The translations under genes were made by a program, and so were the position numbers. The notes below the pieces were generated by a model. It did not search any database and had not been told where the DNA came from. It saw only the letters and a list, made by a program, of their open reading frames with translations. From a virus (Duplodnaviria > Caudoviricetes), in the IMG/VR virus record IMGVR_UViG_3300017913_001833, positions 82,381 through 146,380 of that record: DNA of 64,000 nt, one strand, 5' to 3'. Within the stretch, counting starts at the first letter, position 1; each line of letters starts with the position of its first letter. Below, in pieces: positions 1 through 29,813 of the stretch.

Positions 1-594
1 GATCAAACGCACAAAGGTTTATTTAACAATTTTGTAAATGCAGAAATAGCACAGAGAAATTTGCATTCAGATCCCTTGTGGCAAAATATTTTGTTTATTG
101 AACCAGATAGAGATATATTTGCCATAATAGAAAATGAGAATATAAAAGCATGTATGGCAGTTGAATACATCCAAACAATGCCTTGGTGTATACACAACAC
201 ATTTATTATGCATTATGAACTAAATGCTTTCACTGGAATCAAATATACAAAAAAATTATATGAGCATGTTTTAAATTACGCTGAAACTAAAGGTATATGG
301 AGCCATTGGTATGCAAGAACTGACAAAATAGATCAAGCATTAAAAAGTGAAAAATATGAATATGAAGGAATAAAACAAATGTCAAGATATGGAAATATGT
401 TGGCGAAAGTTATAGGTGATAGATATACTATTGCAGATAGAGCATATGTCAAAGCAGGACATTTAACAGGAATACCTCTATACGATAGGCTAATGATAGG
501 CAAACCACTTCCATATGATGTAACACTACGGCAGATAACTATTAAACAATCAGCAGTAGCAGAAGGTTTTGGCGAGCGTATTACCTATGGCTAA
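1..594 (+). CDS. GNAT-fold-like protein, 5'-truncated (frame is open from base 1)
   Basis: Frame +1 has no stop from 1 to 594 (DQTHKGLFNNFVNAEIAQRNLHSDP...). The pattern DIFAIIENENIKACMAVEY...KKLYEHVLNYAETKG resembles the GNAT beta-strand/motif A helix; the acetyl-CoA motif is weak. Confidence 0.4.
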   Translation, partial: DQTHKGLFNNFVNAEIAQRNLHSDPLWQNILFIEPDRDIFAIIENENIKACMAVEYIQTMPWCIHNTFIMHYELNAFTGIKYTKKLYEHVLNYAETKGIWSHWYARTDKIDQALKSEKYEYEGIKQMSRYGNMLAKVIGDRYTIADRAYVKAGHLTGIPLYDRLMIGKPLPYDVTLRQITIKQSAVAEGFGERITYG

Positions 595-1726
595 CATATT
601 AATAAATTATCAAAGTTCAAGTCTAAGACATACAACTCAAGAATTAAACGAGCATAATCTATATTCATGGAGAGTGCTTAATAAAGATTTCACAAAACGC
701 ACTGCTAGAGAAATACATCCTAGCTTTATTGATAATATTGACATATATGATGACCCTAGACCTATTGTTGCAAAAAAGATCAAAGCCTATATGGCAGAAA
801 AAAATATTGATCTAATTTTTCCTTTGTACAATGATATGATGTTGCCTTACTTGTATGACAAAGTAGGCATAACTAAGAAACAGGCTAGTATTTTATCAAA
901 CAAAGAATACTACAGTAAATTAGCCCGCCAATTGCATATTCCTGTGCCTAAAACTTATACCAACGTCCATGATGCTACATTTCCTATAATTGCTAAGCCA
1001 GTTAATGGTACAGGCAGTATAGGCATAAAGGTCTTAACTGACTTTGATGATTTTGCACAATTTGTATCTGGCAAAGACTATCAGCATAATGATTTAGATC
1101 AATACTACATCTTCCAAGAATTTTTACAAGGTAAGACTGTAAGTTGTGCAGGTAGGATTGTAGACGGAGAATTGCTTTATGATATATCATATGAAATAGA
1201 ATCAAGTGCTTTACCTTATAGAGCAGAGACTGGATTTATCTTTTCTGCTGATATGGATCATGATAGTACATTACAATATTATATAGAAAAACTAGTTAAA
1301 GGATTAGGCTTAGATAACTGTTGCTGGATGGCTGACTTTTTATACAGTGATGGCGAATACTATTTGGTTGACTTTAGTGCCAGGCTTAGCACCAGTGCTC
1401 AAACACTTATTAAATATAGTGCTAATGTTGACTATAATAAAATTGTTGTTGATAGTTTACTATACAAAGACAAAACAAAAGTAGACTGCAAAAAAAGTGT
1501 AGTGTATAGGCATTTTAATTTACCAATGAGCGAATACAACACTGATATAGATGAGTGGCTTGTTGATGAAATACAATTACCTGCATACACTACATACCAA
1601 AATAGGATAGACATGTTGGTACAATATAATGGTTACGCAATAACTAGTGCAGAATCATTAGCAAAAGCAGAACATAAGCATAAAAAAGTAGTTCAAACTT
1701 TAGTAAAATCTCTTAATGTAATATAG
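587..1726 (+). CDS. ATP-grasp family ligase
   Basis: SNKEYYSKLARQLHIPVPK, FPIIAKPVNGTGSIGI, YIFQEFLQG and YLVDFSARLS are ATP-grasp motifs. ATG at 587 overlaps the end of the upstream gene and is preferred over TTG at 569. Confidence 0.85.
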   Translation: MANILINYQSSSLRHTTQELNEHNLYSWRVLNKDFTKRTAREIHPSFIDNIDIYDDPRPIVAKKIKAYMAEKNIDLIFPLYNDMMLPYLYDKVGITKKQASILSNKEYYSKLARQLHIPVPKTYTNVHDATFPIIAKPVNGTGSIGIKVLTDFDDFAQFVSGKDYQHNDLDQYYIFQEFLQGKTVSCAGRIVDGELLYDISYEIESSALPYRAETGFIFSADMDHDSTLQYYIEKLVKGLGLDNCCWMADFLYSDGEYYLVDFSARLSTSAQTLIKYSANVDYNKIVVDSLLYKDKTKVDCKKSVVYRHFNLPMSEYNTDIDEWLVDEIQLPAYTTYQNRIDMLVQYNGYAITSAESLAKAEHKHKKVVQTLVKSLNVI

Positions 1727-2397
1727 TCGGGGCGCAGATTTTTTGTGACTTTATTATCCAATCTATTGTAACAAACAAACAATACAGTCCTGTCATCATT
1801 GCTTAAATTAGCGTCACTAGCATGTAGAGTATTGGCATGCATTACTATGCAGTCTCCGGCATTAGCCACCAGCTGTAGGGCTTTATACGCTGTTTTAGAC
1901 GCCATTATTCCAAGGTTTTCGTCCGCACTATGTTTAATAGTCCATGAATCTGTTTCGAATTTTTCAACAGGTAAAGTATGTGATTCTGGCAATATTTGCA
2001 ATGGTCCATTATTGTCATGCATATCATCTAATATATACAGTACACTTATAGCATGAGGATTCGGCATGCCATCCATATTATGCCAATAAGTGTAATCGCT
2101 ATGCCAAGCAAACTCTCCGCCTGTTTGTGATTTTTTATAATTGAAATGACACTGGTGTATGTAAATATCATCACCTAATTGTTCTTTGATATATGGTATT
2201 GCAGGATTGTCGTATAGAAAATCATTTATTATTTCACTACGCCAATGCGGAGCAAATATGCTTCTAAGACTACCGTTGTTTTCTAGTATGTAAGTGTCAT
2301 CAGCAGTACTGTATTCTAAACGTTTTGCTTCTGCTTTAAGTGGTGTGGGATCAAAAATTCTTTGTAGAATTTCAAAGTCTTTATTCATGCAAGCCAT
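1693..2397 (-). CDS. PhyH/EctD-like Fe(II)/2-oxoglutarate dioxygenase
   Basis: FAWHSDYTYWHNMDGMP is close to the ectoine hydroxylase signature FxWHSDFETWHxEDG(M/L)P. Also NGPLQILPESH, AGDCIVMHANTLHAS and a distal R (DDRTVLF). Confidence 0.85.
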   Translation of the reverse strand: MACMNKDFEILQRIFDPTPLKAEAKRLEYSTADDTYILENNGSLRSIFAPHWRSEIINDFLYDNPAIPYIKEQLGDDIYIHQCHFNYKKSQTGGEFAWHSDYTYWHNMDGMPNPHAISVLYILDDMHDNNGPLQILPESHTLPVEKFETDSWTIKHSADENLGIMASKTAYKALQLVANAGDCIVMHANTLHASDANLSNDDRTVLFVCYNRLDNKVTKNLRPDYITLRDFTKV

Positions 2398-2416
2398 TCC
2401 AAGTCAGTAGTAAAAG

Positions 2417-2432
2417 TATTTATTGATAAATA
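2417..2432. promoter_or_regulatory. Back-to-back divergent T4-like late promoter cores (TATTTAT-TG-ATAAATA)
   Basis: Inverted pair of ATAAATA between two divergent genes, followed on + by an AGGAG Shine-Dalgarno sequence. Confidence 0.6.
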
Positions 2433-2449
2433 TATTTAGGAGACATGAT

Positions 2450-2824
2450 ATGAAAAAAGTTACCGTTAAATTTACTTCAGCTACAGATGACATTGAAACA
2501 TTTGTCACTGGGAAATTTGATAGCCTAGATGATGCAACTTTAGCAAGTCTGCATTCAACAATAGGTACAAACACAACTAATGGAAATATTTGGTTAAGAC
2601 ATTATTGCATTGAAGGTAGTCAAGCTCATATGATTTATATCCTAGATGATGCTGATGCAGTGACAGCAGTACAGCCTGCTCTAACACTAATGGCAGGTAT
2701 TGAAGGATATGTTGAAACTGTAACTGAAGATATGACTTTTGATGAATTCAGTGCTTATGCAGCAGATCACAGAGAAACTGAAATCGTACATGCACGTAAA
2801 ACTGCATTAGATGAGGCTAGTTAA
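2450..2824 (+). CDS. Acidic hypothetical protein (124 aa)
   Basis: AGGAG at 2438-2442 precedes ATG at 2450; no recognisable motif. Confidence 0.7.
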   Translation: MKKVTVKFTSATDDIETFVTGKFDSLDDATLASLHSTIGTNTTNGNIWLRHYCIEGSQAHMIYILDDADAVTAVQPALTLMAGIEGYVETVTEDMTFDEFSAYAADHRETEIVHARKTALDEAS

Positions 2825-3661
2825 TAGCTCTTTAACTTCTATTTCGTAAACACCATTATACAGTAATCTTACATCTTCAATACTAGAAAATACCTGTTCC
2901 ATTATAGGAGATTCTTCTAGCATTTCCCATCCTGTATATTTTTGTCTAGGAACAAAATTATAATTAGTAGAATAAAGTTTATGCTTGCTAGTCCGTGTGC
3001 TTAGTTTACCCGGACGTTGGTTGTTAACAAGTTCTTGTATTATAGGATCTCTCGCGAATGCAACTACCATTTCGGGAGTGTAACGTAAAAAGTCTGGTGT
3101 GCCGTCTATGTTGTTTATTTCATACCAACGGTTATAAGAATTTACTCTTTCAGTTTCTTGCCATTTCCATATACCGTCATAATTTTTGAAGTACGGTTCA
3201 CCATTGGCCATAATCACAGTCCCAGACACTTTAGTAATACCTTTCATAACAGGAATCATTTGATAAGCGCAACATTGAGCTTTGTGTGCAATGTCTTTAA
3301 ATTCTCCGCTGTATACTAAATCTTCAACATCAACATTTATTACTTGTGGAGTAATGCCATTAATTTTACAAAAATCATATGCATAATTTGTATCATGCTC
3401 GTTCCAGTGTCCGTAATCTATTATTGCTACATCAAATTGTATGCCTGCAGACTGGAAAACTCTGATCATAAACTCGCTGTCAATACCTCCGCTAAATAGA
3501 ATAGTAAGAGAGTGTAGTGCAGTTTGCTCAACAAGTTTTGCGGATCTGATACATTCATTAGTAAATGAATCTATTATATTGTTTTTACACTTGTCCAAAT
3601 GAACTGTCCAGCTACTGCCATTACCTGATTGTTTGAAATAATTATTATAAGAAAGATCCAT
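2807..3661 (-). CDS. PP-loop (adenine nucleotide alpha-hydrolase) superfamily ATP pyrophosphatase
   Basis: TILFSGGIDSE PP-loop motif, followed by FDVAIIDY and VIMANGEP. Confidence 0.7.
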   Translation of the reverse strand: MDLSYNNYFKQSGNGSSWTVHLDKCKNNIIDSFTNECIRSAKLVEQTALHSLTILFSGGIDSEFMIRVFQSAGIQFDVAIIDYGHWNEHDTNYAYDFCKINGITPQVINVDVEDLVYSGEFKDIAHKAQCCAYQMIPVMKGITKVSGTVIMANGEPYFKNYDGIWKWQETERVNSYNRWYEINNIDGTPDFLRYTPEMVVAFARDPIIQELVNNQRPGKLSTRTSKHKLYSTNYNFVPRQKYTGWEMLEESPIMEQVFSSIEDVRLLYNGVYEIEVKELLTSLI

Positions 3662-4333
3662 ATGAAAGCATTTAGTCCAATAGATTATAAGTTCGACAAA
3701 GAAGCAATTTACAAAGACTTAATGGAAATGAAAATCTTCGACAAAAGTTTCCTTGCTACAGTTATTTACAAAGACGGCAGGAGTAAGTATGATAAAGCTG
3801 GTGTGTTTGACAAGTATGAAGATGTAACACATTATGATGAGGAGGGCGAACTTGTAAAAGGCGATTACAATACCTTTGTAACATATAACTTTACACAGTG
3901 TCCTGATATTCCTGAAACAGCAGACAACAGTTTTACAGAGACTGAAGATGGTAGAAAACCTGTTTGGCATGTGTATGATCTACCGTGGTTCTGGAAAAGC
4001 AACACTCCAAAAAGTATAAAAGAGGCTGTCAACAATTTAGGATTATCTTATATAACTTGTGTAAGGCTAGTAGGACAAACACCTCCTAGTAAAGGCATTG
4101 TTCATGTAGACGCAGATTACAAAGACAATTTACGTTACTACAAAAAAGGCGGAGTAAGTATTACTCTTAACATAAGCGATGGTGGTGGACATCTACAATA
4201 CCTTACTCCTCAAGGTATGCAAGAAGTAGATGAATCTTTATACGACTGTTGGCATTTCAATGATGCACTACAACATAGGACTACAGAAATTACAAGCCCT
4301 AGAATACAAATTAGAGTATTTGGAAGAAAATGA
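3662..4333 (+). CDS. Putative Fe(II)/2OG dioxygenase (cupin/DSBH fold)
   Basis: VHVD...WHFNDALQH...PRIQIRVFG gives an HxD...H triad plus distal Arg. ATG at 3662 is preferred over TTG at 3629. Confidence 0.65.
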   Translation: MKAFSPIDYKFDKEAIYKDLMEMKIFDKSFLATVIYKDGRSKYDKAGVFDKYEDVTHYDEEGELVKGDYNTFVTYNFTQCPDIPETADNSFTETEDGRKPVWHVYDLPWFWKSNTPKSIKEAVNNLGLSYITCVRLVGQTPPSKGIVHVDADYKDNLRYYKKGGVSITLNISDGGGHLQYLTPQGMQEVDESLYDCWHFNDALQHRTTEITSPRIQIRVFGRK

Positions 4334-5040
4334 CAGACTGGCGCAATTTAGTTTTTTCACCATTAGACTTGCCAAGTCCACCCGAAGTAGATATGGATGC
4401 TTTTATCGAGTGGCATGCTAAACAGAAAAAGTTTATGCTACAACATAATCAAAACAAAGTCAACAGTACAAATATATACGGAGGCTATTGTTGGCACATA
4501 AGTTGGGCAATCTGGTGGAATACATATAAATTAGACAACCCTTGGATTTGCGGCTTTGAGAAATATTTTCCTGAGCTAGTCGACTATATAAACATGTTTC
4601 CTTTTACGCAAATAAAAAGTATCAGTTTCCTTAATCAGATAGGAGGCGCAAAAGTTGAACCTCATAGTGATCCTGATAAAATGTGGGGTATGCGTTTTTA
4701 CTTAAAAAATAAAACCAAAGATGCTCTATACTTTAGTAGAATGAAAGAACCTCGTAATGAACGCATAGCAACAATGGAAGATGCAGATGGCAATCCTTTA
4801 AGCAAACGTAGAGATCATTTAGATTTTTGTAGAGATGAAAAAATTTATGCACGTTTTCCTAAAGACGAATGTGCTTGGATGCTTAACAGTTACAGAGCAT
4901 GGCATGGTTTAGATGAAAACGCTTCACCAACAGGAAGCAGAATTACATGTGCTATAATCGGCGACTACGACAAAGACAAACTTTTTAACTTGCTAGACTC
5001 AAGCACAAAAGAATATAAAGATTATCAAATTTGGTTTTAA
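4330..5040 (+). CDS. Putative Fe(II)/2OG dioxygenase
   Basis: PHSD...AWMLNSYRAWHG...SRITCAIIG; ATGA overlap with the upstream gene. Confidence 0.65.
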   Translation: MTDWRNLVFSPLDLPSPPEVDMDAFIEWHAKQKKFMLQHNQNKVNSTNIYGGYCWHISWAIWWNTYKLDNPWICGFEKYFPELVDYINMFPFTQIKSISFLNQIGGAKVEPHSDPDKMWGMRFYLKNKTKDALYFSRMKEPRNERIATMEDADGNPLSKRRDHLDFCRDEKIYARFPKDECAWMLNSYRAWHGLDENASPTGSRITCAIIGDYDKDKLFNLLDSSTKEYKDYQIWF

Positions 5041-5041
5041 C

Positions 5042-5662
5042 ATGACAATACTATACACACCTTTAGATTTACCAGCACTAGACTTTGACAGAGAAGAATT
5101 TATAAAATGGCACGAAGCAAAAAGATGGCGTAACAGAGATAACATTAATTACGACACAAAAGATTTTATTGCTCCGTGGTTAGTAAGTTTTGCGTATCAT
5201 AAAGACTATGGTTGGTGTAACAGATTTATGAAAGTCATTCCAAACTTTCAAGACATATTGTACAATCATCTTCCATACTATGATATTACATATGTAAACT
5301 TTTTAGAACAAAAGATTCCTTGTCAACTACATCAAGATGTTGGCAGTCGTCCTGAAAGAGAAGACGAACCAGGTGCATACAAAGCATTTATGGTTTATGA
5401 TGCACCATTAATGTATTTCCAAGTAGGAGAAGATAAGAAAAATCTTAGTGAAGAAAAGTTATATATTCAACATCCTAATGAACTTACGAAATGGTTTGCA
5501 ATTAATAACTATGATGCATACCATGCAGCTGACTTGCCAAGCAAGGGTCAACGCAAAATTATAATGACAATATTAGGAAAATTAGATAAAGAAAAACACA
5601 AACAGATACTAGATAGAAGTTTAGAAAAGTATAAAGATTATCTAATTACCTGTAAAACTTAA
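5042..5662 (+). CDS. Putative Fe(II)/2OG dioxygenase, paralogue of 4330-5040
   Basis: LHQD...WFAINNYDAYHA...RKIIMTILG. Shares the N-terminal PLDLP..D...FI.WH and C-terminal G..DK.K...LD.S...YKDY with the preceding gene. Confidence 0.65.
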   Translation: MTILYTPLDLPALDFDREEFIKWHEAKRWRNRDNINYDTKDFIAPWLVSFAYHKDYGWCNRFMKVIPNFQDILYNHLPYYDITYVNFLEQKIPCQLHQDVGSRPEREDEPGAYKAFMVYDAPLMYFQVGEDKKNLSEEKLYIQHPNELTKWFAINNYDAYHAADLPSKGQRKIIMTILGKLDKEKHKQILDRSLEKYKDYLITCKT

Positions 5663-6254
5663 TTAGATCAAATTGGTCGGGCTTTTTATTTCTACTGCTT
5701 ATTGCAATATCAGGTTTTACATTAGCATGATCCCAACCTAGTTCTACTCCATCCTTATATACTTTTCTAATTGGATCTGTGTCTAATTGATCTATATATC
5801 CTATACCAAGAATAATGGCGGCTGTTTTTCCAGACCTATCTAATTTTTTTGCAACTTTACCAGGTTCAATACATCCACAAAAGCCTGTTTGTAAACCTAT
5901 TTCTTCGGCGGCAACCATTGCTATTGTTGCACTTACTATACAGTCTGCATATGTTTCTTTATCTTTATCAGATGCTATCCATGTTAAAATCACAGGAGCA
6001 AGAACTTGTCCGTTGTACCTTCTTACACCATCGCCTTCTGCGCCTCTTACTCCATTTAGGCAACAGGTATTTTTATAGTATAACCAATTTTTAAATTCTT
6101 CTGATTTAGAAACAAAAACTTCATATTCAAAATTTCCATTTTTAGATGGAGCATTGTAAAGACAATCTAGAACGTATTTTAATTTTTTATCCTCAACTTG
6201 AGAATCACTCCACCATTTTGCAGTTATACGTTTTTGTAAAAGGTCTTTTATCAT
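5646..6254 (-). CDS. Nitroreductase-family flavoprotein
   Basis: LQKRITAKWW, APSKNG, AMVAAEEIGLQTGFCGC and ILGIGY are nitroreductase FMN-binding motifs. Confidence 0.8.
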   Translation of the reverse strand: MIKDLLQKRITAKWWSDSQVEDKKLKYVLDCLYNAPSKNGNFEYEVFVSKSEEFKNWLYYKNTCCLNGVRGAEGDGVRRYNGQVLAPVILTWIASDKDKETYADCIVSATIAMVAAEEIGLQTGFCGCIEPGKVAKKLDRSGKTAAIILGIGYIDQLDTDPIRKVYKDGVELGWDHANVKPDIAISSRNKKPDQFDLIKFYR

Positions 6255-7720
6255 GCTAGTGTCTTTTGTAAATAATCTTGTATAGCTTTACGCTTTGTAT
6301 TCTTCAAGTATTTATGAGGTAATTTTTTGCGTAAGCCCGAGTAGTCTTGGTAGTGCTTTTCTAAATCTAATCCTAAACTAGTCACACTACCACATACCCA
6401 GCCTGCTACTTTTTGATAACTGTCATCCATCTGTCTTAATTCTTCTGCAAGTTTTCCTGCTTTTATAGCATTCATGTGTTCATTTTTCCATACTGTCATC
6501 CATGCATTTGTTTTACTTGCAAGTGTATTTTTTAGTAGACGTTTTTGCTTATGTACTTTATACCCATACTTTTCAGGATTACGATCAATTGGGCTATGAT
6601 ATTCGTGATGTTCTTTTGAATGTATTAGTAATGGATACCATTGCCAAAAGTCTATATTAGGATCTGAAACTACACGTTCTCTACTTTCTCTAATACTTGA
6701 TTCGCTTTCATGAGGTAATCCAACAATTAAGTTTATCTGTGTTTTTACTTGCCCTTTACTTTTTTGCTTCATATCAGCTATAGCATCTAGCACTTTGTCT
6801 ACTGTATAGCCTTTTTGCACTGCTTGTCTTGTTTGTTTGTTATAACTTTCAATACCGAAACTTGCTCCTCGTAATCCTGATTCAACTAGTAAATCTATTT
6901 GGTCGGGCCACCTTACTAACAATTCTGGTTTGATATATGTATCAAAATTTATGTTGAAAGGTAAACTACTTATAACTTCGTGCATAAGTTCTAATTTAAC
7001 CATACTATCGTTATATGTATCGTCCATAAACCAATAATTTGTTGTACCAAATTTTTCATAGTTACGCATAAATTCTGTATACATATCTTCTTTAGCACGG
7101 ATATAATCAAACTTATTTTTGTTGTTAAGCGGAAAATTACAGAAACTACAATTAAAAATGCATCCTCTGGCTATTTCCATAGGTAAACTTTGATGCGGTG
7201 TGATGTAATCTTCTGCTTTCCATAGAACAGGTATATTACTAATATCTTTTCTATCATAATTGTGATTACTATCAACTATTTTCTTACCTTTGTAGTCTCT
7301 AAATTTTAGATTTGTATCTTTGCCGTCAAGGTATTTTGTTAATGCTACTGTTGCATCGTCTGCATATCCTGTAACGAATATATCTGCAAAGTCTAAAAAT
7401 TCTACCATTGCTTTTGCACCGCCAATTACAAATGGTACTTTATATTGTTGGCGAAGATTTGTAAAGAATAATTTTCTTTCTTGTAATAGTTGAGATGTGT
7501 TAAAAAATGTTGTGCTGAATCCTACCCATAGTGTATCTTGACTAACATATTTGTCAAACGCTTGTTGTATATTTTCATTAGACATGCTATGGAAATGGTC
7601 AATTACTTTGACTCTGTATCCATTCATCTCTAATTCTGTGCGTATCCTGTACGCTCCTAAAGCTCGAAAATATGTAGACTCTGATAAATCAATACCAGTA
7701 AAGATTACAGCATGATACAT
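6251..7720 (-). CDS. Cobalamin-binding (class B-like) radical SAM enzyme
   Basis: N-terminal B12-binding-like domain (LGAYRIRTEL, VGFSTTF, FVIGG); EIARGCIFNCSFC, FMDDTYN, SFGIES, LIVGLPHES. Start set at ATG 7720 (TAATG overlap with the desaturase stop). Confidence 0.9.
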   Translation of the reverse strand: MYHAVIFTGIDLSESTYFRALGAYRIRTELEMNGYRVKVIDHFHSMSNENIQQAFDKYVSQDTLWVGFSTTFFNTSQLLQERKLFFTNLRQQYKVPFVIGGAKAMVEFLDFADIFVTGYADDATVALTKYLDGKDTNLKFRDYKGKKIVDSNHNYDRKDISNIPVLWKAEDYITPHQSLPMEIARGCIFNCSFCNFPLNNKNKFDYIRAKEDMYTEFMRNYEKFGTTNYWFMDDTYNDSMVKLELMHEVISSLPFNINFDTYIKPELLVRWPDQIDLLVESGLRGASFGIESYNKQTRQAVQKGYTVDKVLDAIADMKQKSKGQVKTQINLIVGLPHESESSIRESRERVVSDPNIDFWQWYPLLIHSKEHHEYHSPIDRNPEKYGYKVHKQKRLLKNTLASKTNAWMTVWKNEHMNAIKAGKLAEELRQMDDSYQKVAGWVCGSVTSLGLDLEKHYQDYSGLRKKLPHKYLKNTKRKAIQDYLQKTLA

Positions 7721-8472: not shown

Positions 8473-8477
8473 GATAA

Positions 8478-8484
8478 TATTTAT
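8478..8484 (-). promoter_or_regulatory. T4-like late promoter core ATAAATA, 5 nt before the desaturase ATG
   Basis: Minus strand reads GATAAATA-TTATC-ATG; there is no room for a Shine-Dalgarno sequence. Confidence 0.6.
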
Positions 8485-9891: not shown

Positions 9892-9894
9892 AAA

Positions 9895-12945: not shown

Positions 12946-12960
12946 TATTTACGATAAATA
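12946..12960. promoter_or_regulatory. Back-to-back late promoter cores (GTAAATA on -, ATAAATA on +)
   Basis: TATTTACGATAAATA followed by TTTAGGAGAC, nearly identical to the element at 2415-2444. Confidence 0.6.
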
Positions 12961-22081: not shown

Positions 22082-23139
22082 GTTTGGTCCTTCAATTCAT
22101 TATGATATGCTTTGTTGTAGCCACATGTTACAATACATCTACGGAAATGCTTTTCATGTGCAGGATCCCAACTTTCTGCTAGTATTTTATCAAACCAAGG
22201 ATGAGAAAGTATTTCATCAATGCTATGAGTCTTTAAACTATTCCAACCTGTTTCGTATTCTGCTAATTTGTCGTTGATGTTTTCTTTATTTTTTTGTGCC
22301 CAATCAGAAAGGAAACAACAAGGCCACATTGTTTGTTTGGCACTTATAAATATTTCGCCTTCGTGAATTAATTTACATTTGATACTACGCACTACTGTTT
22401 GTGTTTCTTCTTTTGTCTTGTTTTCTTTTTCTATAAACTTGTATAACTCTTGTACTTGTGCTTTTTTGCTGTGTTCTTTACTTCCGGTAGTTGTAATTGC
22501 TTTTTTAACTTTTGAATTTTTCTTTCCTATTTCTGCAACCCATGTATGATAACTGTTACGCATACCTGTTCTTGTTGCGAAATTAAATCCTAAACGTTTA
22601 GCATGTTCTTTGGCTGCTTCTAGTTCGTGTTCGTTGTGATCAAAAACAATAAACACCCATTTTGCTCTGTAGGCAAATTCACCTACTGCTTCACTGAATG
22701 CATTCATGTTACGTTCTAATACTGACCATTTTGTGTTTACTCTGTATATGTGGTTAGTTTCTTTGTGTCCGTCTACACAGAAGTGTATGTGGAATTTGCG
22801 CTGATACTTTGCACACATATGACCTAGTCTAGTCCACATGTCAACAGGGCCAACTGCACCGTTAGTGCTAATGCTAACCATGCCTTGATTTTCTAACAAA
22901 TATTCTAGCATTTCTGCAAACTGTGGATGAATAGCAGGATCGCCTAGCACGCCGCAAAACTTAAATTCAACACCGTCATAGTCTCCAGGAGGAAACATTC
23001 TCTTAAGATCATCCAGACTAAAATCTGTAACTTGTAGATTGCCTTTTGCAAGCTCTTGTGTTCTTGCACAGCCTGGACAGGCGGCATTGCAATCACTTGT
23101 AATTTCTAGTTCAACTTTTTTAATATCACTTAGTTTCAT
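22078..23139 (-). CDS. Radical SAM/SPASM enzyme (subfamily C)
   Basis: CNAACPGC, FCGVLGDP, STNG, VDG..ETNHIYR, FDHNEH, WPCC, CIVTC. Confidence 0.9.
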   Translation of the reverse strand: MKLSDIKKVELEITSDCNAACPGCARTQELAKGNLQVTDFSLDDLKRMFPPGDYDGVEFKFCGVLGDPAIHPQFAEMLEYLLENQGMVSISTNGAVGPVDMWTRLGHMCAKYQRKFHIHFCVDGHKETNHIYRVNTKWSVLERNMNAFSEAVGEFAYRAKWVFIVFDHNEHELEAAKEHAKRLGFNFATRTGMRNSYHTWVAEIGKKNSKVKKAITTTGSKEHSKKAQVQELYKFIEKENKTKEETQTVVRSIKCKLIHEGEIFISAKQTMWPCCFLSDWAQKNKENINDKLAEYETGWNSLKTHSIDEILSHPWFDKILAESWDPAHEKHFRRCIVTCGYNKAYHNELKDQT

Positions 23140-24218
23140 TCATCGCTCCATTGTGCTTTATATGGATCAAATTCTATACCGCACTTTTCAGAACATACTG
23201 ATAATTTGCCTTCTTTACAACTAGACAAACTCCAACCTGATTGAATGTTGTCAAATATACCTGTTGCAAAAACTTTATCTAGTCCTTGCTTTGCATTTAG
23301 ATTTTGTTTGCCGCCGATGTTTTCTATATAACGCCATATAGGTTCTATTGTAGGATCTTTATGGTACCATTTGTACATACGTGTAGCAGTCCAACAGCAA
23401 GGCAGTGCTAAGCCTTCTGCTGTTATAAACAAACTACCTTCTTCTTTTACTTTGCACTTGATAGGTACAGCATCGTAATAGTTTTGCATACTACCATACT
23501 TGTCTAACAGTGCATCTTGCTTGTTACGTGTTTTGTTTTGATATTTCTTAGCAGGCTTTTTAATAATTTTTGCAGTTTCACCTTTTTTACTTTTTGCTTG
23601 GTGTTCTTCTTTTTTATCTTTTTTTGCTGTAACAAATCTGTCAGTCTTTTTTGCAATAAATCTTTCAAACCCTAATTCGTTGGCAAATGCTTCTGCTTGT
23701 TCAACTTGATGTTGATTATGTTCAAACACAAGAAAATCCCAACGAGCTCTTCCACCTGCATTTATAAAAGAACGCATACTGCGTTCTACATTGTCCCAAA
23801 CCACGTTCTGCCTGTATATGTGGTTAGTATCCCTAAGCCCGTCCACACTAAAAATAACAGCACCCATCCTACCATAGACTTGGGCCAGTTCTGTCCACCA
23901 CGCTTCATCTCTTGCTCCTGCATTTGTATTCATGCTTAACCACATATTTGGATTATGCTCACGGAAATATTTGAATATCTCTAATGTATCTCTTGCAATT
24001 ATAGGATCTCCTAAGTTGCCGCACATAAACATAGTTTTAAGTTGTGCTACAAACTCAGGTTTGAATATACGTTTACAATCTTCAAGTGATAGTTCATCAA
24101 GATTGATGTGTGGATTAACACCTTCGCCATTCATGTTACGATCACACATAGGACATGCCGCCTGGCAGTTTTGTGTAACTTCTAAATGTATTGCTCTTAT
24201 ATCTTCATAATTATACAT
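23136..24218 (-). CDS. Radical SAM/SPASM enzyme (subfamily C)
   Basis: CQAACPMC, MCGNLGDP, NTNAG, VDG..DTNHIYR, FEHNQHQ, LPCC, CSEKC. Confidence 0.9.
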   Translation of the reverse strand: MYNYEDIRAIHLEVTQNCQAACPMCDRNMNGEGVNPHINLDELSLEDCKRIFKPEFVAQLKTMFMCGNLGDPIIARDTLEIFKYFREHNPNMWLSMNTNAGARDEAWWTELAQVYGRMGAVIFSVDGLRDTNHIYRQNVVWDNVERSMRSFINAGGRARWDFLVFEHNQHQVEQAEAFANELGFERFIAKKTDRFVTAKKDKKEEHQAKSKKGETAKIIKKPAKKYQNKTRNKQDALLDKYGSMQNYYDAVPIKCKVKEEGSLFITAEGLALPCCWTATRMYKWYHKDPTIEPIWRYIENIGGKQNLNAKQGLDKVFATGIFDNIQSGWSLSSCKEGKLSVCSEKCGIEFDPYKAQWSDE

Positions 24219-24720
24219 TGTGTATCCTATTATTTACAAGCCATGCTAGTTGATTCCAACTAGCAATATACTTACCTGACATTATTTCATCAATAACTAT
24301 AAAAGAGTCTATGTCTAACAGTTTTAATTTTAGATCATGTGTGAACACTAAATTTTTTAAGTACATGTCTTGGTGCATAAAATATTGTCCTTGAGGCAAA
24401 TTTTCATGCGAGAATTGTATGCAGTCTGTGTAAATTTGACAAAAAACTTGCAGTGCTTCTGCAATATTTTTATTAGGTATTTCATACTTGTCTGGGTAAT
24501 CTAACAAACATTCTACAAGAGTGCAATATGGTCTAATCTTTTTCATACTATACTGTGTAGGACTTTCCCAAGTAATTACTGGTACACAATATTCTTTATC
24601 CTTGCTAAACTTTTTGTAAAGTTCGAAGTTTTCTTTTGTAAACGTACCGTACTTTAATTCTTTGCTTACAAAGTTCTTACCATGATACAGATTTGATCTA
24701 ATAAATTCTTGTTTAATCAT
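24211..24720 (-). CDS. Minimal protein-kinase-like (ePK/APH-fold) protein
   Basis: FMHQDMYLKNLVF (HxD-x4-N catalytic loop) and LKLLDID (metal-binding Asp). Confidence 0.6.
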   Translation of the reverse strand: MIKQEFIRSNLYHGKNFVSKELKYGTFTKENFELYKKFSKDKEYCVPVITWESPTQYSMKKIRPYCTLVECLLDYPDKYEIPNKNIAEALQVFCQIYTDCIQFSHENLPQGQYFMHQDMYLKNLVFTHDLKLKLLDIDSFIVIDEIMSGKYIASWNQLAWLVNNRIHNV

Positions 24721-24937
24721 TGTATAATAATTTTATATCTTTCCCAGGTCCTGTTTTGCTAGGAAGATCTCCGTATTGTTCTATGTACCAATCAATAACA
24801 GCCTTGTACCAATTTTGGCTGTTGTGATGTGCCTGCTTATTGAACTGAAAAATATTATTGTTGGTTGCTTGCATTGTGCTCAGGGCTCTTGCACTTTCTT
24901 GTTGCAACTGCCTAAGTGTTAAATTATTTAAGTCCAA
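24713..24937 (-). CDS. Small hypothetical protein (74 aa)
   Basis: Overlaps both neighbours in the same orientation; no recognisable motif. Confidence 0.65.
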   Translation of the reverse strand: MDLNNLTLRQLQQESARALSTMQATNNNIFQFNKQAHHNSQNWYKAVIDWYIEQYGDLPSKTGPGKDIKLLYND

Positions 24938-27488
24938 TTCTCATATACCTTGTGTATTGTTCTAATTCTAATTCTCCTGTAAAGTATACTTCACTTAAAG
25001 GAGACATTTCAGCAAAATGCAAACTATCCTTTACACAGTTTACATGTTCGTCTATAGCAACGTAATCGTTGCTCTGTAAACATATAAGTTTCCCTTTTGG
25101 TATTTTATCATACCATTCTGCAAAGTTTTCGATGTGTTCACAACTTGTATTGATAATGGTGTTAGGTGAGTCTTTGCAGTTTTCTATATCGCCATTGCCT
25201 TTAACTGTTGTATAGTTATCAACAATATAATTAATATCCATTATGTCTTTTGTTTGTGCCTTGAATTTCCAGCCATCTTTTAAATGTTGGTTAAATGTTT
25301 CTGCAATCTTCCATACGTTATCGTCTATGTCAAAACTACGTATCTTATCAAACTTTATATTTGCTTCACTAAACATAGGCACTATTGTAGCATACCAACC
25401 AGCACAAATAAAAACGGTACCAAGATCTAAGTCTAACTGTTTAAGTGTATCCACTAACCATTTTTTACTTTTTATTTGACCACGACTAAAACAATCCATA
25501 TCAATATTGCTATCTTGTAATTTTTTAAGAGCAGGTACAAACAAACTATTTGTATGTTTTTCTAACACACGCCATAGTGCATTTTTGTCATTTTGCAATA
25601 CAACCTTAAATTCATCTTTTACTTCAGGCAATAATCTCGACAAACTGTAAAAATTTTCTTCAATTACTGCTTTACGCAAATCAACGTTTGAATTTGCAAG
25701 TCTGAATATACTGTGCATATTCTTTTCTACTACTGCTTTACGTAATTCTTCATTGTTTGCTATTTTAAAAACACTGCTTAAATCTCTATCATTATACAAA
25801 CGTCTTACATTGCTAACACCTTCGTACATGTATTCAAATCTGTCAAGTAAGTCTACAATTTCCTGCGCCTTTATTTCAGGTTGTGCTACTTTTTCTTGCG
25901 GATAAGCAATATCAAATTGTTGTCTAAGCCATTCGAAATCATTTATTAGCCTAAGATCAGACCCCCCAGAAAGGCCAAACTCCATACCAGCGGTAGCGCC
26001 TGCCAAAGCGTATTCCCCAAAAGGTCTATCGTGTCCCACGGTTGTCCAAGTTTTAAGTCTTTCATCTGTTTCTCCTGTTTTTTGTCTATCAATTACTTTA
26101 CTACTTAATTTTGCACATTCTCTAAATGCACTTTTCCAAGTTTCAAAAGGTCCTGTGTTAAATGCTGTAATATTACTAACAACTTTGATAGGCTTAAAAT
26201 GTCTGCTTATGCTTGTTGTCATATCTGGACGAGATGTGTCCATATCAATTGTTGCTTGTCTTGGAAATAGTTTTATGCCACCATATCCATATTCTAGGTC
26301 ATTGATAGGATTGACACTACGCCATACTTTTACGTAGTTCTTTTCGTGTTCTGGTGATACATAATCAAAATGAAAGTCTTCTGATATTACTGCATCGCCG
26401 TCAACGATCCATATAAGATCAGTTTTACATAGTTTTGCCGCTTCAATATGTGCTTGGTGAATACCTGTTACTCCGTCTACACGTTTTGCACGAGGGAACC
26501 TATCTAACAATGCTTGATAATTTTCATCAGCATTAGGTTCATTGTATGTAATCATTACAATGTCATATTCTTCATTTTTATTAGGCTTTTTATAGTAGTC
26601 ATTTAGCACACGCTTAGGTGGTGTGTATAAACTTTTAAAAAACTTGCTTTGTTCTTCATCATACCATTCAACAGGAATATCTATTTGGTACCTTAGCGTT
26701 TCACCTAGTTCTGTTATTTTGCTATAAAGTTCTTCTGGTGGTATTTTACTGTATGTTTCTTCCCACATACGATTGAGTGTTTCAAAATCACGCACATTTA
26801 CATAATCCCAATTAGTACACATTGTTTTATATGCACCTTCTCTTGCACCATATATAGCCCACAGGCCGTTATCAACATCACTACCAACTGTTTGCCATAT
26901 ACGGAGTCTGTCAAGATTCTTTTTAGGTATTCTGCTTGCATCGTCTGTACGCAAGCCTTCAAGCAAACACATTTTTACACCTTCACGAAAACCTGCACGC
27001 CATGCTTGTTGCGGTGTAGCATTGTTGTGTACAGTGCTGTATGTTTTGTTTATCTGCAAGTATTCGAGCCCCCAGCAAAAATCAATACCAGCAGCAACGT
27101 TTTCAGGATCTGCATTTTCATGTGTCTTCATATTTTTTACAAGTTCGGTTGGCCAACACTTTATACCACCGTTTCCGTATACAAGTCCGTTGATGACATT
27201 GTAACCACTCCAACTAACTACGCATTTACTAAGATCAATATCATCCCTGAAATATAACTCTTCGTCTATAAATCCGTCTATTACTTTGTTGTCACCATCG
27301 ATAGTTATAAATCTATCTGTTTCTGCTATATTTGCACAGGCCTTATGTGCAGCATCACTGCCTTCTACTCCATGCACACGCTTTGCCCAAGGAATACGCT
27401 GTAATAGGTCATAATAATTTTCCTCAGCATTAGGTTCATCATAACTGAGATAAATTATATCGTAATCTTTTACTTTGAATGTTGCCAT
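24924..27488 (-). CDS. Fusion: two tandem GT-A (GT2-like) glycosyltransferase domains, short helical repeats, and a C-terminal class I SAM methyltransferase-like domain
   Basis: YDI..(L/I)(S/T)Y.EPNA.ENY..L..R.P.AKRV.GV.G...AH...A...TD....DGD occurs twice. C-terminal VFICAGWY, RSFDID and INTSCEH resemble a Rossmann methyltransferase. Confidence 0.7.
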   Translation of the reverse strand: MATFKVKDYDIIYLSYDEPNAEENYYDLLQRIPWAKRVHGVEGSDAAHKACANIAETDRFITIDGDNKVIDGFIDEELYFRDDIDLSKCVVSWSGYNVINGLVYGNGGIKCWPTELVKNMKTHENADPENVAAGIDFCWGLEYLQINKTYSTVHNNATPQQAWRAGFREGVKMCLLEGLRTDDASRIPKKNLDRLRIWQTVGSDVDNGLWAIYGAREGAYKTMCTNWDYVNVRDFETLNRMWEETYSKIPPEELYSKITELGETLRYQIDIPVEWYDEEQSKFFKSLYTPPKRVLNDYYKKPNKNEEYDIVMITYNEPNADENYQALLDRFPRAKRVDGVTGIHQAHIEAAKLCKTDLIWIVDGDAVISEDFHFDYVSPEHEKNYVKVWRSVNPINDLEYGYGGIKLFPRQATIDMDTSRPDMTTSISRHFKPIKVVSNITAFNTGPFETWKSAFRECAKLSSKVIDRQKTGETDERLKTWTTVGHDRPFGEYALAGATAGMEFGLSGGSDLRLINDFEWLRQQFDIAYPQEKVAQPEIKAQEIVDLLDRFEYMYEGVSNVRRLYNDRDLSSVFKIANNEELRKAVVEKNMHSIFRLANSNVDLRKAVIEENFYSLSRLLPEVKDEFKVVLQNDKNALWRVLEKHTNSLFVPALKKLQDSNIDMDCFSRGQIKSKKWLVDTLKQLDLDLGTVFICAGWYATIVPMFSEANIKFDKIRSFDIDDNVWKIAETFNQHLKDGWKFKAQTKDIMDINYIVDNYTTVKGNGDIENCKDSPNTIINTSCEHIENFAEWYDKIPKGKLICLQSNDYVAIDEHVNCVKDSLHFAEMSPLSEVYFTGELELEQYTRYMRIGLK

Positions 27489-27994
27489 TATTGCCTTGTG
27501 TGTTTAAATGTGTATGCAGGATTGTGCATGTACAAACTAATGTTTGATGTATCTACGTCATATTCTATATTTTGTGATGCTTCTTGTAACATAAAATGCA
27601 TTGTATTTAAGAGTGCATATGGGTTATTCTTTTCAGTTACGAATATATTCACAAGTGTGTTGTTATTTGCAATGTACTGTTTATATTCTTCATCACCTTG
27701 CACTTGCAAAGTAATTTTATTTTTGTTTTGTACAAATTCTACATAATTTTCTGTTTTTACATCTGTAGGTACAGAATATATATTTTTATTGCTAGGTACT
27801 TCTAATTGATTTTGTTTGAATACATATTCGCCTTCATACAATTCTACATGCCAATTGATAAAATTTTCTAAGCCGTCCTCAAACTTACGTCCAAGCTCAT
27901 CAGTAATTGCTACACTAACTGCATTTTCTTTTTGTGGACTTATACTTGTAACAAGATTTGTTGCAGGATCAAAGTTAACGTAATACATCTTCAA
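27488..27994 (-). CDS. Hypothetical protein
   Basis: 168-aa ORF coupled to both neighbours. Confidence 0.65.
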   Translation of the reverse strand: MKMYYVNFDPATNLVTSISPQKENAVSVAITDELGRKFEDGLENFINWHVELYEGEYVFKQNQLEVPSNKNIYSVPTDVKTENYVEFVQNKNKITLQVQGDEEYKQYIANNNTLVNIFVTEKNNPYALLNTMHFMLQEASQNIEYDVDTSNISLYMHNPAYTFKHTRQ

Positions 27995-28715
27995 ATCCTT
28001 CTATGTAATGCACTATCCTATTTTGTAAAAAATTGCCAATAAACAATTTGTTGTCAACAAAATGTATATCTTCTGGTAAATCACAATCATGCACCCTTGG
28101 TTTCAAATGAACAAAACCGATATCATACTCTGTAATACTATAATTTAAAATATGTAATGCAATACTAGTGCTTATATCAATACTTGCCCAAGTTTGTGTT
28201 TTATAAGGAGCAAAAGTTGCATAATATCCTTGCCAATTGTTGTGTACATCTTTAAGCGTATCAAAAAACTTACTTGCTTTTAGACTTTTCTTAAAATAGT
28301 ACATGCCTACATAAGTGTTAGGTAATCCATTACCAATGACACTTTGCCTATAGTAAGAATTATGCACAGGTGTATTACGATATGTATAAACTTTTGTAGT
28401 GAACCATAAGTCTTCGTTACTAAGCAAATCAAAATATTCATTCATATCTACAGGACAAAACATATCTACATCCATAACAATAGTTTCATCATAAGGAGAT
28501 ACATCATATGCATTTATTCTGTTGTAGATCTTCCAATTACCTTCACTGTTAGGCACATGGATTATGGTGTCAAAATTTTCACTGTCTACTATATCGCTAG
28601 TTACAAGTGTAATCTTAACATCACCATTAGTTTTGATACTACGTGCAAGTATTTCTGCTTGACGCACATAATTGATAGTACTGTTTTCAGCAAATAAAAC
28701 TACACCTCTAGTCAC
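27975..28715 (-). CDS. GT8-like glycosyltransferase
   Basis: GVVLFA...YVRQA..LA.SIK; SPYDETIVMDVD (DxD); GMYYFKK; FVHLK. Confidence 0.72.
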   Translation of the reverse strand: MTRGVVLFAENSTINYVRQAEILARSIKTNGDVKITLVTSDIVDSENFDTIIHVPNSEGNWKIYNRINAYDVSPYDETIVMDVDMFCPVDMNEYFDLLSNEDLWFTTKVYTYRNTPVHNSYYRQSVIGNGLPNTYVGMYYFKKSLKASKFFDTLKDVHNNWQGYYATFAPYKTQTWASIDISTSIALHILNYSITEYDIGFVHLKPRVHDCDLPEDIHFVDNKLFIGNFLQNRIVHYIEGFEDVLR

Positions 28716-29487
28716 TTATCATCTCCGTTAGTGCAACTTTATTCATAATATGAGTATTAAGGCCACGTGTGTTTACAACAAAGTTGCCTTGAGATATATC
28801 TAAATTATAAACAGAGTCTGAATCAAAACTTGACACAAGTGGATCTGGTAATGGGCATGGCCAATCTGTAGTTGTATAACCATTCAGCATGTGTATCGCA
28901 ATACTAAATGCAAAGTCATTCCTAAACTTTCGATTGCCAATGCTATACAGCATACGATAGTAAGTCCAGTTGTTTTGTATATGTTCAACTAAATTAAAGA
29001 ATATCTTTGTTTTAGGATTCTTGTTAAAATAAAATACTGTAGCCCAATACATGTCTATGCCATGTTCTGCTAAACGTTCTACAGTTTTATCTGAGCGTTC
29101 ATTTATATCAGTATATGTTTTGTTAATTAGTAAATCTTTTCCGCTTTCAAACACGCTAGACAAACTTTTGTTCTTAATAATAAAGTCTGTGTCCATGACT
29201 AGTGTGTTTTCATAGGGTGTAAGATCCCAACATTTACACCTGTCAAAGTTTAACCAAACTATTTGTTCACCTGCAATTTTTTTGACCTGTCTACTGTGTA
29301 GATTTACATTGATAATCTTATCAAACGGTCCGGACTTAAAACTTGTATTTGTAACTAAGCTCACAGGCAAAGACATGTGCTTTTTAATTTGTAAAGCACA
29401 ATGTTCAGCAAGTTTCAAATAGTTAACTTTAGGTTTAGAAAAGTTTACAACATCTTCTTGTATCGCAAAAAGTAAAACACCATTCAA
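28708..29487 (-). CDS. GT8-like glycosyltransferase, paralogue of 27975-28715
   Basis: GVLLFA...YLKLA; TPYENTLVMDTD; WATVFYF; RNDFAFSIA; HIMNK. Confidence 0.72.
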   Translation of the reverse strand: MNGVLLFAIQEDVVNFSKPKVNYLKLAEHCALQIKKHMSLPVSLVTNTSFKSGPFDKIINVNLHSRQVKKIAGEQIVWLNFDRCKCWDLTPYENTLVMDTDFIIKNKSLSSVFESGKDLLINKTYTDINERSDKTVERLAEHGIDMYWATVFYFNKNPKTKIFFNLVEHIQNNWTYYRMLYSIGNRKFRNDFAFSIAIHMLNGYTTTDWPCPLPDPLVSSFDSDSVYNLDISQGNFVVNTRGLNTHIMNKVALTEMISD

Positions 29488-29813
29488 GTTAACAACCCCT
29501 TAGCATCTCTATATTTGCATAACTCAGCATAAGCATCATAATAAGTTTCAGTAGCAAACCTAAACTTATCTAAGATAGTTTCATAAAAATCTTGCATGTT
29601 GCTAATTTTTACAGGAATATCATTTGCATCTATGACTACATCTGTAACAGGATTTTTCATACTGTTTACAAATTGTGTGTCAAGAATAAACATTCCTCCA
29701 TTATAATATATAATGCAGTCTTTCTTGAATTTTTCTTTGAGTAAGCGTTTTTGATTTTGAAAAGTCCGCATGTATTCAGACTGTTCAAGTGCTGTTTTTA
29801 GTTTAGTATCCAT
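29484..29813 (-). CDS. Hypothetical protein
   Basis: 109-aa ORF preceded by a sigma70-type promoter. Confidence 0.65.
   Translation of the reverse strand: MDTKLKTALEQSEYMRTFQNQKRLLKEKFKKDCIIYYNGGMFILDTQFVNSMKNPVTDVVIDANDIPVKISNMQDFYETILDKFRFATETYYDAYAELCKYRDAKGLLT

Follow-up and report, generated by a model that had tools for sequence, protein, structure and literature searches.

A 64,000-nucleotide stretch of viral DNA (the window; bases 82,381-146,380 of the linear, 146,380-bp IMG/VR viral contig IMGVR_UViG_3300017913_001833, CheckV completeness 39%) carries a block of radical S-adenosylmethionine (SAM) enzymes, glycosyltransferases (GTs) and other tailoring enzymes, which forms the enzyme-rich tail end of a host-recognition module of baseplate and fibre genes. 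The source is an uncultured marine jumbo myovirus, with a genome of ~380 kb in a complete relative. The block is partitioned into a lineage-conserved cassette (window 11.8-29.8 kb) and a variable island (window -3.6 to 11.7 kb). Among three candidate products (a glycan, a peptide or a lipid), the evidence points to a glycan, and we consider the chance that the block encodes a late-expressed pathway building and tailoring a glycan to be about even. The virion, through its fibre or baseplate proteins, is the favoured acceptor, which we infer with lower confidence than the glycan itself.

The cassette contains two GT-A-like paralogs, a protein with two GT domains and a methyltransferase (MT) domain (GT-GT-MT), a 74-amino-acid (aa) protein, a kinase-like gene and nine radical SAMs of the SPASM/twitch type. 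The island contains PanD, TauD, desaturases, ATP-grasp, PP-loop, nitroreductases, a B12 radical SAM and ~7-8 genes resembling Fe/2-oxoglutarate (Fe/2OG) dioxygenases. An earlier reading of this DNA from its letters alone (the sequence-only reading) had started the block at base 1 and treated it as a single ~30-kb pathway. Both claims were wrong: the block runs ~3.6 kb further left, across PanD, two TauD genes, a desaturase and a radical SAM, and its left 15 kb is the variable island, the content of which changes among relatives. Open reading frames (ORFs) were annotated with Pfam, NCBIfam and PHROGs, and those left unannotated were retried with Pfam at E up to 10; fourteen remained without any profile match, Pfam at this threshold and PHROGs returning almost nothing. 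Pfam matches were obtained for the ATP-grasp ligase, the two nitroreductases and the fatty-acid desaturase that had been named from sequence alone. The two PP-loop ATPases also obtained matches, both weak, the proposed kinase gave only a weak Pfam ABC1 match (E 0.007), and the two GNATs and the SGNH protein had zero profile matches.

Ten radical SAM genes are located in the window, all with an intact CxxxCxxC motif, and an eleventh adjoins it on the left. Eight of the ten score above the Pfam cut-off (PF04055), and two fall below it at 24.9 and 19.6 bits. Judged by Pfam or NCBIfam match together with the motif, all ten belong to the radical SAM superfamily at the sequence level, so that the number originally proposed stands. 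Three of them, all on the minus strand, serve as anchors of the cassette. Anchor A (rSAM-A; 23136-24218) has a median identity of 69% in phage loci and 44% in Bdellovibrionota, with the motif RTAAATA 19 nt upstream. Anchor B (rSAM-B; 17629-19041) has an N-terminal twitch domain, matches the NCBIfam family NF033640 (N_Twi_rSAM) at 429 bits and belongs to a family of >2,100 protein clusters. Anchor C (rSAM-C; 11769-12908) shows a median of 82% in 70 phage loci and 63% in 60 genome loci, with RTAAATA 44 nt upstream.

Four variable radical SAM paralogs occupy 19060-23139 (minus strand): 19060-20091, 20088-21029 and 22078-23139 have C-terminal Cys clusters, and 21029-22081 is of the N-terminal-twitch type. 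Three further minus-strand genes span 13553-16996, namely a radical SAM (13553-14812), a PP-loop-like gene (14709-15677) and an N-terminal-twitch radical SAM (15674-16996). Three proteins exceed the 170-bit cut-off of NF033640 (rSAM-B; 15674-16996 at 212 bits; 21029-22081 at 203 bits); all three carry a Cys-rich domain N-terminal to CxxxCxxC, in which C13, C94 and C97 are invariant. The other seven window radical SAMs are below every NCBIfam family cut-off, and searches of the Protein Data Bank (PDB) with rSAM-A, B and C returned no solved relative and nothing significant beyond SkfB (E 3e-4). The genes at 15674-16996 and 14709-15677, which overlap by ATGA in this phage, form one ~830-aa ORF in several relatives (L008:12568-15060). 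Because of this fusion, the sequences suggest that the radical SAM and the PP-loop protein act on one substrate. Also inside the array is a 218-aa gene (16980-17636, minus strand) with 36 local profile hits and relatives in other arrays, for which no Pfam or PHROG family was found.

The central protein of the cassette is the 854-aa GT-GT-MT protein (24924-27488, minus strand), the AlphaFold2 (AF2) model of which has a pLDDT of 86. It is predicted to comprise two GT-A domains (residues 4-295 and 305-530), a linker (541-657) built as a repeat of short helices that joins the GT and MT parts, and a class I SAM methyltransferase (660-854). Foldseek matches the pair of GT-A domains to chondroitin polymerase K4CP (2z87), itself a two-domain enzyme, in an alignment of 576 columns (E 1e-5) with ~11% sequence identity; domain orientation keeps the TM scores low. 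Both domains carry a DxD-like motif, DGD, after a beta strand, and cross-match each other's homologs at 30-35%; by modelled fold and motif, both are GT-A domains. The last 195 residues match NodS (TMt 0.67), ChlM, Coq5 and CntL in Foldseek (E ~1e-5), and the model assigns them to the class I SAM methyltransferase fold. Searches against PDB sequences with the whole protein and with a profile of its MT domain gave nothing significant.

Upstream of this gene lie four minus-strand genes (27488-29813) that are syntenic in all long relatives: a 168-aa gene, a paralog pair (27975-28715 and 28708-29487) and a 109-aa gene. Members of the pair match each other by hhalign at 100%, and language-model (atlas) features link them at 0.95-0.97 to Nucleotid_trans/Glyco_transf_8 clusters; against Pfam Nucleotid_trans (PF03407) they gave zero match. 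On this language-model lead the two are probably GT-A/GT8-like nucleotide-sugar transferases. Of the four GT domains and one MT domain in the sequence-only reading, AF2 and Foldseek thus bear out the MT domain and the two GT domains of the 854-aa protein, and the other two GT domains are language-model leads. The 74-aa protein (24713-24937, minus strand) invariably follows the MT domain, with a 14-nt overlap in this phage. It has a median identity of 77% over 63 loci and 30 invariant columns, is evenly conserved along its full length, and lacks both Cys residues and a variable core; modelling it in complex with the 854-aa protein returned a non-diagnostic score of 0.00. A kinase-like protein (24211-24720, minus strand), whose ABC1 match is below the cut-off, has conserved HxD and DxD motifs and is found in only some relatives.

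Conservation separates the cassette core from its surroundings. A search with rSAM-B gave 206 matching phage contigs, with at least 80 contigs at 80-86% identity; 80 loci were kept, and all contig proteins were searched against them. Median identities of the core proteins are 58% for GT-GT-MT, 77% for the 74-aa protein, 69% for rSAM-A, 83% for rSAM-B and 82% for rSAM-C, and the three anchors show 69-83% identity across at least 60 phage contigs. Radical SAMs located between them have mostly 26-31% best matches, and the non-anchor set therefore differs from phage to phage. Among 46 complete 21-kb loci, the number of radical SAMs ranges from 5 to 13, with a median of 9.

Synteny was compared over 80 kb from each of five long relatives, including a complete genome with the same gene order (381,886 bp, completeness rating 100%). 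The sequence-only reading had staked its proposal on a link to the tail module, and this link held: the genes are not scattered, and follow the fibres in the same-strand order in all five. On one strand, gp25, the gp6-like gene, a giant protein, a 204-aa gene and three fibre genes precede the cassette, which continues with the 291-aa gene (1-2 copies), the 109-aa gene, the two GT-like paralogs, the GT domain, the GT-MT part, the 74-aa gene, rSAM-A, variable radical SAMs, rSAM-B, further variable radical SAMs and rSAM-C. Past rSAM-C comes the variable island, and then a convergent conserved module (MoxR AAA, VWA/metallopeptidase, 5'-3' exonuclease). Islands of the relatives reuse TauD, desaturase and PP-loop genes, the remainder being different in each. 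In three of the five relatives, an insert of ~9-16 kb separates the GT domain from GT-MT. The ~16-kb insert of relative G002 (G002:C1:141300-157600; L176-L179), like the one at the same site in G004, holds further radical SAM-like genes, and that of G002 also includes a gene of the NAD-dependent sugar epimerase/dehydratase family (146.7 bits) inside the cassette.

Counterparts of the core are present in bacteria. In a scan of one genome per prokaryotic species, rSAM-B at 51-62% identity was found almost only in Bdellovibrionota, including megabase contigs and locus L117 of the cultured Bdellovibrio sp. HCB2-146. Homologs of rSAM-A (median 44%) and rSAM-C (63%) are located near it; by family, the Bdellovibrionota loci number 66 for rSAM-B, 48 for A, 48 for C, 27 for MT-like and 23 for GT-like proteins, the last two standing alone and unfused. 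Two GT2 families, with K4CP and PglI/TarS as nearest solved relatives, occur at 22 and 21 bacterial loci. At loci L117 and L098, GT2 proteins make up most of the non-radical-SAM neighbours with a Pfam match, and L098 further encodes a PP-loop protein along with a homolog of window 8492-9328 that resembles Asp/Arg hydroxylases. The 74-aa gene is absent from the Bdellovibrionota loci and specific to the phage lineage. In five Bdellovibrionota genomes no ABC-2 permease was found within the locus, the nearest being >200 kb away where the contig could be matched. A FastTree phylogeny of rSAM-B, which is strictly unrooted and has several long branches, nests the phage clade within Bdellovibrionota diversity, and this topology suggests transfer of rSAM-B from bacterium to phage. 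Some hits in metagenome-assembled genomes (MAGs) with 73-85% rSAM-B identity also have the phage-only 74-aa gene, and phage-type arrays are found in MAG contigs L082, L083, L084, L126, L129, L135, L136 and L140, labelled Flavobacteriaceae, Crocinitomicaceae, Neisseriaceae, Rickettsiales, Gammaproteobacteria, Verrucomicrobiales, Chloroflexota and Acidimicrobiaceae. These contigs are probably misbinned phage DNA, and therefore give no host signal.

Gene arrangement and a shared motif tie the cassette to the structural genes. Minus-strand genes run head-to-tail from 62184 down to 13553 with gaps of -104 to +57 nt, which confirms the continuity with the fibre genes noticed earlier, and further minus-strand genes extend to 5646. 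Ten of the 14 minus-strand copies of RTAAATA are located 12-61 nt upstream of minus-strand starts, compared to 0.57 expected under simple random placement. The motif had been noticed in front of several block genes; it is found upstream of structural genes (gp25, the gp6-like gene, the 204-aa gene and two fibre-region genes) and of enzyme genes (rSAM-A, rSAM-C, the desaturase, a nitroreductase and PhyH) alike. The full T4 late octamer TATAAATA is depleted on both strands of the window (2 copies against 10 +/- 3 expected). Strand, packing and motif support, at the level of sequence, shared regulation of structural and block genes.

The pathway that we favour would operate as follows. The GT-A domains would make an oligo- or polysaccharide from host nucleotide sugars, which the fused SAM methyltransferase would methylate or cap. 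The SPASM/twitch radical SAMs would edit its sugar units by C-methylation, epimerisation, dehydration/oxidation or the formation of C-C links, and turnover of the non-anchor radical SAMs, together with the adjoining island enzymes, would diversify the product. It would be made late and joined to an acceptor in the cytoplasm, for which we favour the fibre or baseplate proteins. Both the glycan substrate of the radical SAMs and the late expression are what we infer. A glycan is preferred over a peptide because the only constant partners of the anchor triad, in phages and bacteria, are sugar-transferase and methyltransferase domains. Late production appears likeliest since the cassette shares strand, packing and RTAAATA with the structural genes. 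Pfam searches of five phage records, including the complete one, found no sugar nucleotidyltransferase, ABC-2 exporter or initiating phosphoglycosyl transferase gene (NTP_transferase, ABC2_membrane and Bac_transf, respectively); the lack of Bac_transf and ABC-2 genes and the tie to the structural module make a cytoplasmic acceptor likeliest. A bolder version, in which a modular and rapidly evolving set of 5-13 radical SAMs per phage edits, by unprecedented glycan chemistry, a GT-GT-MT polymer shown on the fibres or baseplate of abundant marine jumbo phages, and in which the core came from Bdellovibrionota, where it decorates the predator surface, is speculative and probably not correct in full. 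If true, each phage would have its own radical-edited glycan coat, affecting host recognition or evasion.

Several observations weigh against the glycan pathway. None of the radical SAMs in these families has a known substrate. The GT identity of 27975-29487 comes only from a language-model lead, the null for the RTAAATA count is simple random placement, and the left island may be unrelated cargo outside one pathway. Most weak NCBIfam matches of the radical SAMs are to peptide maturases, as is their top PDB sequence match (SkfB, E 3e-4), and the predicted fold of the oxygenase at 10392-11111 is similar to that of proline and Asp/Asn hydroxylases, enzymes whose substrates are often proteins. 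Maturation of a protein or peptide, as for ribosomally made peptides that are modified after translation (RiPPs), would have the radical SAMs, Fe/2OG enzymes, ATP-grasp, PP-loop proteins and nitroreductases modify a ribosomal product (fibre proteins, giant baseplate proteins or the 74-aa protein), with GTs adding sugars as in glycocins. In its mix of enzymes the block is similar to proteusin clusters or other RiPP loci, the genes immediately upstream encode large fibre proteins that could serve as substrates, and the cassette has its small conserved ORF (74 aa); the weak maturase matches extend from SkfB to PapB, YhhB, StsB and CcpM, and the modelled oxygenase matches prolyl and aspartyl hydroxylases. 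Those maturase matches, however, reach only 20-45 bits against family cut-offs of 300-650, and the 74-aa protein is evenly conserved, not Cys-rich and devoid of a variable core, and Bdellovibrionota clusters that retain the triad do not have it. What constantly accompanies the triad in bacteria is a set of GT and MT proteins rather than a small ORF, a protease or an exporter, and Pfam detects no RRE-type domain in the window proteins. Neither a precursor with leader and variable core was found, nor a maturase above its family cut-off or an RRE, and we regard peptide maturation as unlikely.

Conversion of the host envelope, in which the GTs and tailoring enzymes would remodel a host surface polysaccharide, for example to block superinfection, is in our view a somewhat poorer prospect still. 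O-chain modification has been proposed for GT-rich islands with radical SAM cassettes beside tail fibres (PMC7029224), homologs in bacterial chromosomes belong to clusters rich in GT2 genes, as is typical of surface polysaccharide loci, and two membrane desaturase-family genes are present. Yet Bac_transf and ABC-2 exporter genes are lacking from all five phage records, the complete one included, the ABC-2 permease lies outside the locus in the five Bdellovibrionota genomes, and the strand, packing and motif common to late structural genes would be late for superinfection exclusion. A lipid-linked surface polysaccharide system was accordingly not recognized by Bac_transf/ABC2_membrane in the five records, a search that did not cover Wzx, Wzy or WecA-type genes. 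Hypermodification of phage DNA, with GTs, MT and radical SAMs elaborating a modified base, is suggested by a weak QueE-like radical SAM match left of the window, by two PP-loop proteins that match the PP-loop region of QueC only, and by the DNA glycosylation by phage GTs for which PMC12619734 cites Pyle et al. 2024. The PP-loop matches are sub-threshold and without the rest of QueC, the block has no nucleotide-pathway or base-exchange enzyme, the triad occurs among GT2 genes in bacterial chromosomes, and the cassette is tied to the fibre module, with a convergent boundary separating it from replication-side genes. Pfam TGT (PF01702) gave zero matches in the contig and four relatives, an absence that is unproven for DpdA, which is divergent; the combination of a DpdA/TGT enzyme with a QueC-type enzyme, as in 7-deazaguanine-type loci, was not found, and DNA modification is the least probable of the readings considered. 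Finally, a recombination hot spot could have gathered unrelated auxiliary genes with no common product, in line with the varying content, mixed strands and several paralog pairs of the left 15 kb and with the turnover of the non-anchor radical SAMs. Retention of the core (GT-like, MT-like, rSAM-A/B/C) across phages of 40-60% structural-protein identity and in Bdellovibrionota is hard to explain other than by functional coupling, and we hold such a hot spot to be very improbable.

The variable island has a mixed composition. A plus-strand operon ends at its left (1-1726) with a 204-aa ORF (-20 to 594) and an ATP-grasp ligase (569-1726; Pfam ATP-grasp_3, 3.4e-8); outside the window, the same operon encodes PanD (1.6e-28), two TauD proteins (6e-20 and 1e-19), FA_desaturase and Radical_SAM. 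On the minus strand follow a PhyH-type Fe/2OG dioxygenase (1693-2397; Pfam PhyH 2.3e-25, 90 bits), with RTAAATA 26 nt upstream, and a PP-loop ATPase-like gene (2807-3661) that has a 26% homolog in the island of relative G001. QueC and ATP_bind_3 match the latter at Pfam E 5e-4 and 8e-4, below cut-offs and over model positions 4-66; QueC membership was rejected, since only the PP-loop region matches. Next are a plus-strand tandem pair of candidate Fe/2OG paralogs (4330-5040 and 5042-5662), a nitroreductase-family flavoenzyme (5646-6254, minus; Pfam 3.2e-5), a B12-binding radical SAM resembling class B methyltransferases (6251-7789, minus; Pfam Radical_SAM 4e-16), with partial NCBIfam matches to B12 radical SAM families that are all below cut-offs, and a membrane di-iron enzyme of the fatty-acid desaturase family (7720-8472, minus; Pfam FA_desaturase 7.5e-21), which has a paralog left of the window. 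The flavoenzyme is a paralog of the plus-strand nitroreductase-family gene at 12979-13560 (Pfam 2.7e-7), which is divergent from rSAM-C and has its own RTAAATA at 12954, 25 nt upstream.

Five small minus-strand genes (8492-11914) complete the island: 8492-9328, 9325-9891, 9895-10392, 10392-11111 and 11108-11914, at least four of which are Fe/2OG (double-stranded beta-helix)-like. The AF2 model of 10392-11111 (pLDDT 92) matches proline hydroxylases and AspH in Foldseek (E 1e-8, TMq 0.5-0.6), and its H154-x-D156...H204 triad is invariant. The gene at 8492-9328 is linked to it by hhalign at 86%, and 11108-11914 keeps H129-x-D131...H245 in 30 sequences. In the tandem pair, which is joined by hhalign at a probability of 100%, H112-x-D114...H192 is conserved, and a weak atlas lead at 0.91 points to Asp_Arg_Hydrox/2OG-FeII_Oxy_3. 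Two proteins therefore qualify as Fe/2OG enzymes, 1693-2397 by its PhyH profile and 10392-11111 by predicted fold and invariant triad; for 4330-5040, 5042-5662, 8492-9328, 9895-10392 and 11108-11914 the case consists of motifs or weak matches only. The proposed total of ~8 Fe/2OG genes is thus plausible, with one supported by Pfam, one by structure, and the other five being motif-based or weak leads.

At its left edge the island is bounded by a 394-aa protein with an Mtd_N (major tropism determinant) domain (L001:15184-16365, genome 77564-78748), so that receptor-binding-type genes flank the enzymes on both sides. Beyond it, on the opposite strand, are a MoxR-type AAA ATPase and a DUF2201 metallopeptidase/VWA protein (L001:11141-13637, genome 73521-76020), a pair conserved at 66-84% in all long relatives. 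On the right, the fibre region (29852-36234, minus strand) comprises the conserved 291-aa gene and three paralogous tail-fibre genes, with Pfam matches to Phage Tail Collar (1e-16), Gp10_C and the Peptidase_G2 intramolecular chaperone domain. The baseplate module (36238-62184, minus strand) holds the 204-aa gene, a 4,971-aa giant protein, a 1,181-aa gp6-like wedge protein, gp25, a gp5 hub with lysozyme and a gp53-like gene; Pfam support from GPW_gp25, Phage_base_V/DUF2345/Glyco_hydro_19 and Phage_gp53 identifies a T4-type baseplate in the right half of the window. In the gp5-like hub (55848-58373, minus), residues 704-756 form a class I chitinase/lysozyme-like (Glyco_hydro_19) segment, which replaces the lysozyme domain of T4. 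The giant protein (36872-51787, minus), encoded between the gp6-like wedge gene and the fibres, is 40-48% conserved in relatives, is sometimes split there into 3-4 ORFs, and possibly corresponds to the giant VrlC-type baseplate protein found in marine myophages.

The gp5 hub has 28-36% identity to PA5oct and Rak2-like jumbo phages, with Pseudomonas phage PA5oct at 36%. At the DNA level, neither the block nor the baseplate region had a megablast match among 50,697 phage records. Near-identical DNA is present in marine and seawater metagenomes from six studies according to a sequencing-run search, in which zero RNA runs were among the listed holders of the window sequence. Among cultured phages, the tblastn matches to rSAM-B were confined to three jumbo phages at 21-23% identity, namely Vibrio phages K566 and K567 and Ralstonia phage RsoM2USA, the records of which annotate the neighbours of the match as hypothetical. 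K566 (L163, 161548-167037) has 3-4 tandem radical SAMs with 21-25% identity to the N-terminal-twitch family, and K567 likewise has a distant array at 21-25%. The GT-GT-MT protein was unmatched within the 19 kb of K566 that were examined.

Phage host-recognition or glycan islands are a known kind of locus. Pelagimyophages and cyanomyophages have a host recognition cluster (HRC), in which GT-rich hypervariable islands with radical SAM cassettes lie beside tail fibres (Zaragoza-Solas et al. 2020, PMC7029224); GT and radical SAM cassettes in this position had thus been noted before the sequence-only reading offered an undescribed system, although no member of the present system has been characterised, and the HRC paper assigned the radical SAMs no function. 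The present block is likewise a large hypervariable island within the structural region, adjoining a giant baseplate protein and tail fibres. It differs in phage lineage, gp5 being nearest to PA5oct/Rak2-like phages at 28-36%, and in having a defined conserved core (rSAM-A/B/C, GT-GT-MT, 74-aa) with a median of 9 radical SAMs per locus. NF033640, for which three window proteins qualify, is a family name without known substrate or structure.

Like K4CP, the 854-aa protein has two tandem GT-A domains in a single chain, and polymerase activity is putative. Surface polysaccharide synthesis also employs polymerase/coiled-coil/terminator proteins of the WbdA/WbdD and WbbB types. The helical linker followed by a methyltransferase recalls their chain-terminating methyltransferases, and a kinase-like gene follows; the linker is, however, a short-helix repeat rather than a demonstrated coiled-coil ruler, and unlike surface polysaccharide polymerase systems the phage is without lipid-carrier or ABC exporter genes (Bac_transf/ABC2_membrane, five records). 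In aminoglycoside and nucleoside antibiotic pathways, the twitch enzyme BtrN and the B12 enzyme GenK are examples of radical SAMs that act on carbohydrate scaffolds alongside glycosyltransferases. Such a pairing of twitch or B12 radical SAMs with glycosyltransferases is shared with the block, but there is no detectable sequence relationship and no aminotransferase or cyclitol genes are present. In mycobacteriophages, virion proteins are decorated by phage-encoded GTs whose genes lie with the structural ones (Freeman et al. 2023, PMC10527164, as cited in PMC12619734). Those phages are siphoviruses of Actinobacteria without radical SAMs, oxygenases or an MT fusion, and in the present phage virion glycosylation is a proposal. 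The moraphage study itself (PMC12619734) lists four core GT orthogroups and never mentions radical SAMs. New in the present analysis are the two-part block, the triad of anchors and the variable genes between them, the GT-GT-MT fold and the phage-only 74-aa protein, as well as the synteny in all five long relatives, the shared RTAAATA and one orphan Fe/2OG family with predicted-structure support. There is a real chance that the chemistry is categorically new.

To our knowledge, few radical SAM enzymes act on glycans, and new chemistry has come from every known example. The core in the cultured Bdellovibrio HCB2-146 and the distant arrays in Vibrio phages K566 and K567 provide experimental entry points. 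The block brings to light a radical SAM family with >2,000 sequence clusters in ocean metagenomes that is tightly linked to sugar transferases in the host-recognition module of a widespread phage lineage. A peptide or a DNA base as product would be equally new chemistry; a product that decorates virions would add a new layer to phage-host specificity and define glycans of a new, enzymatically diversified class.

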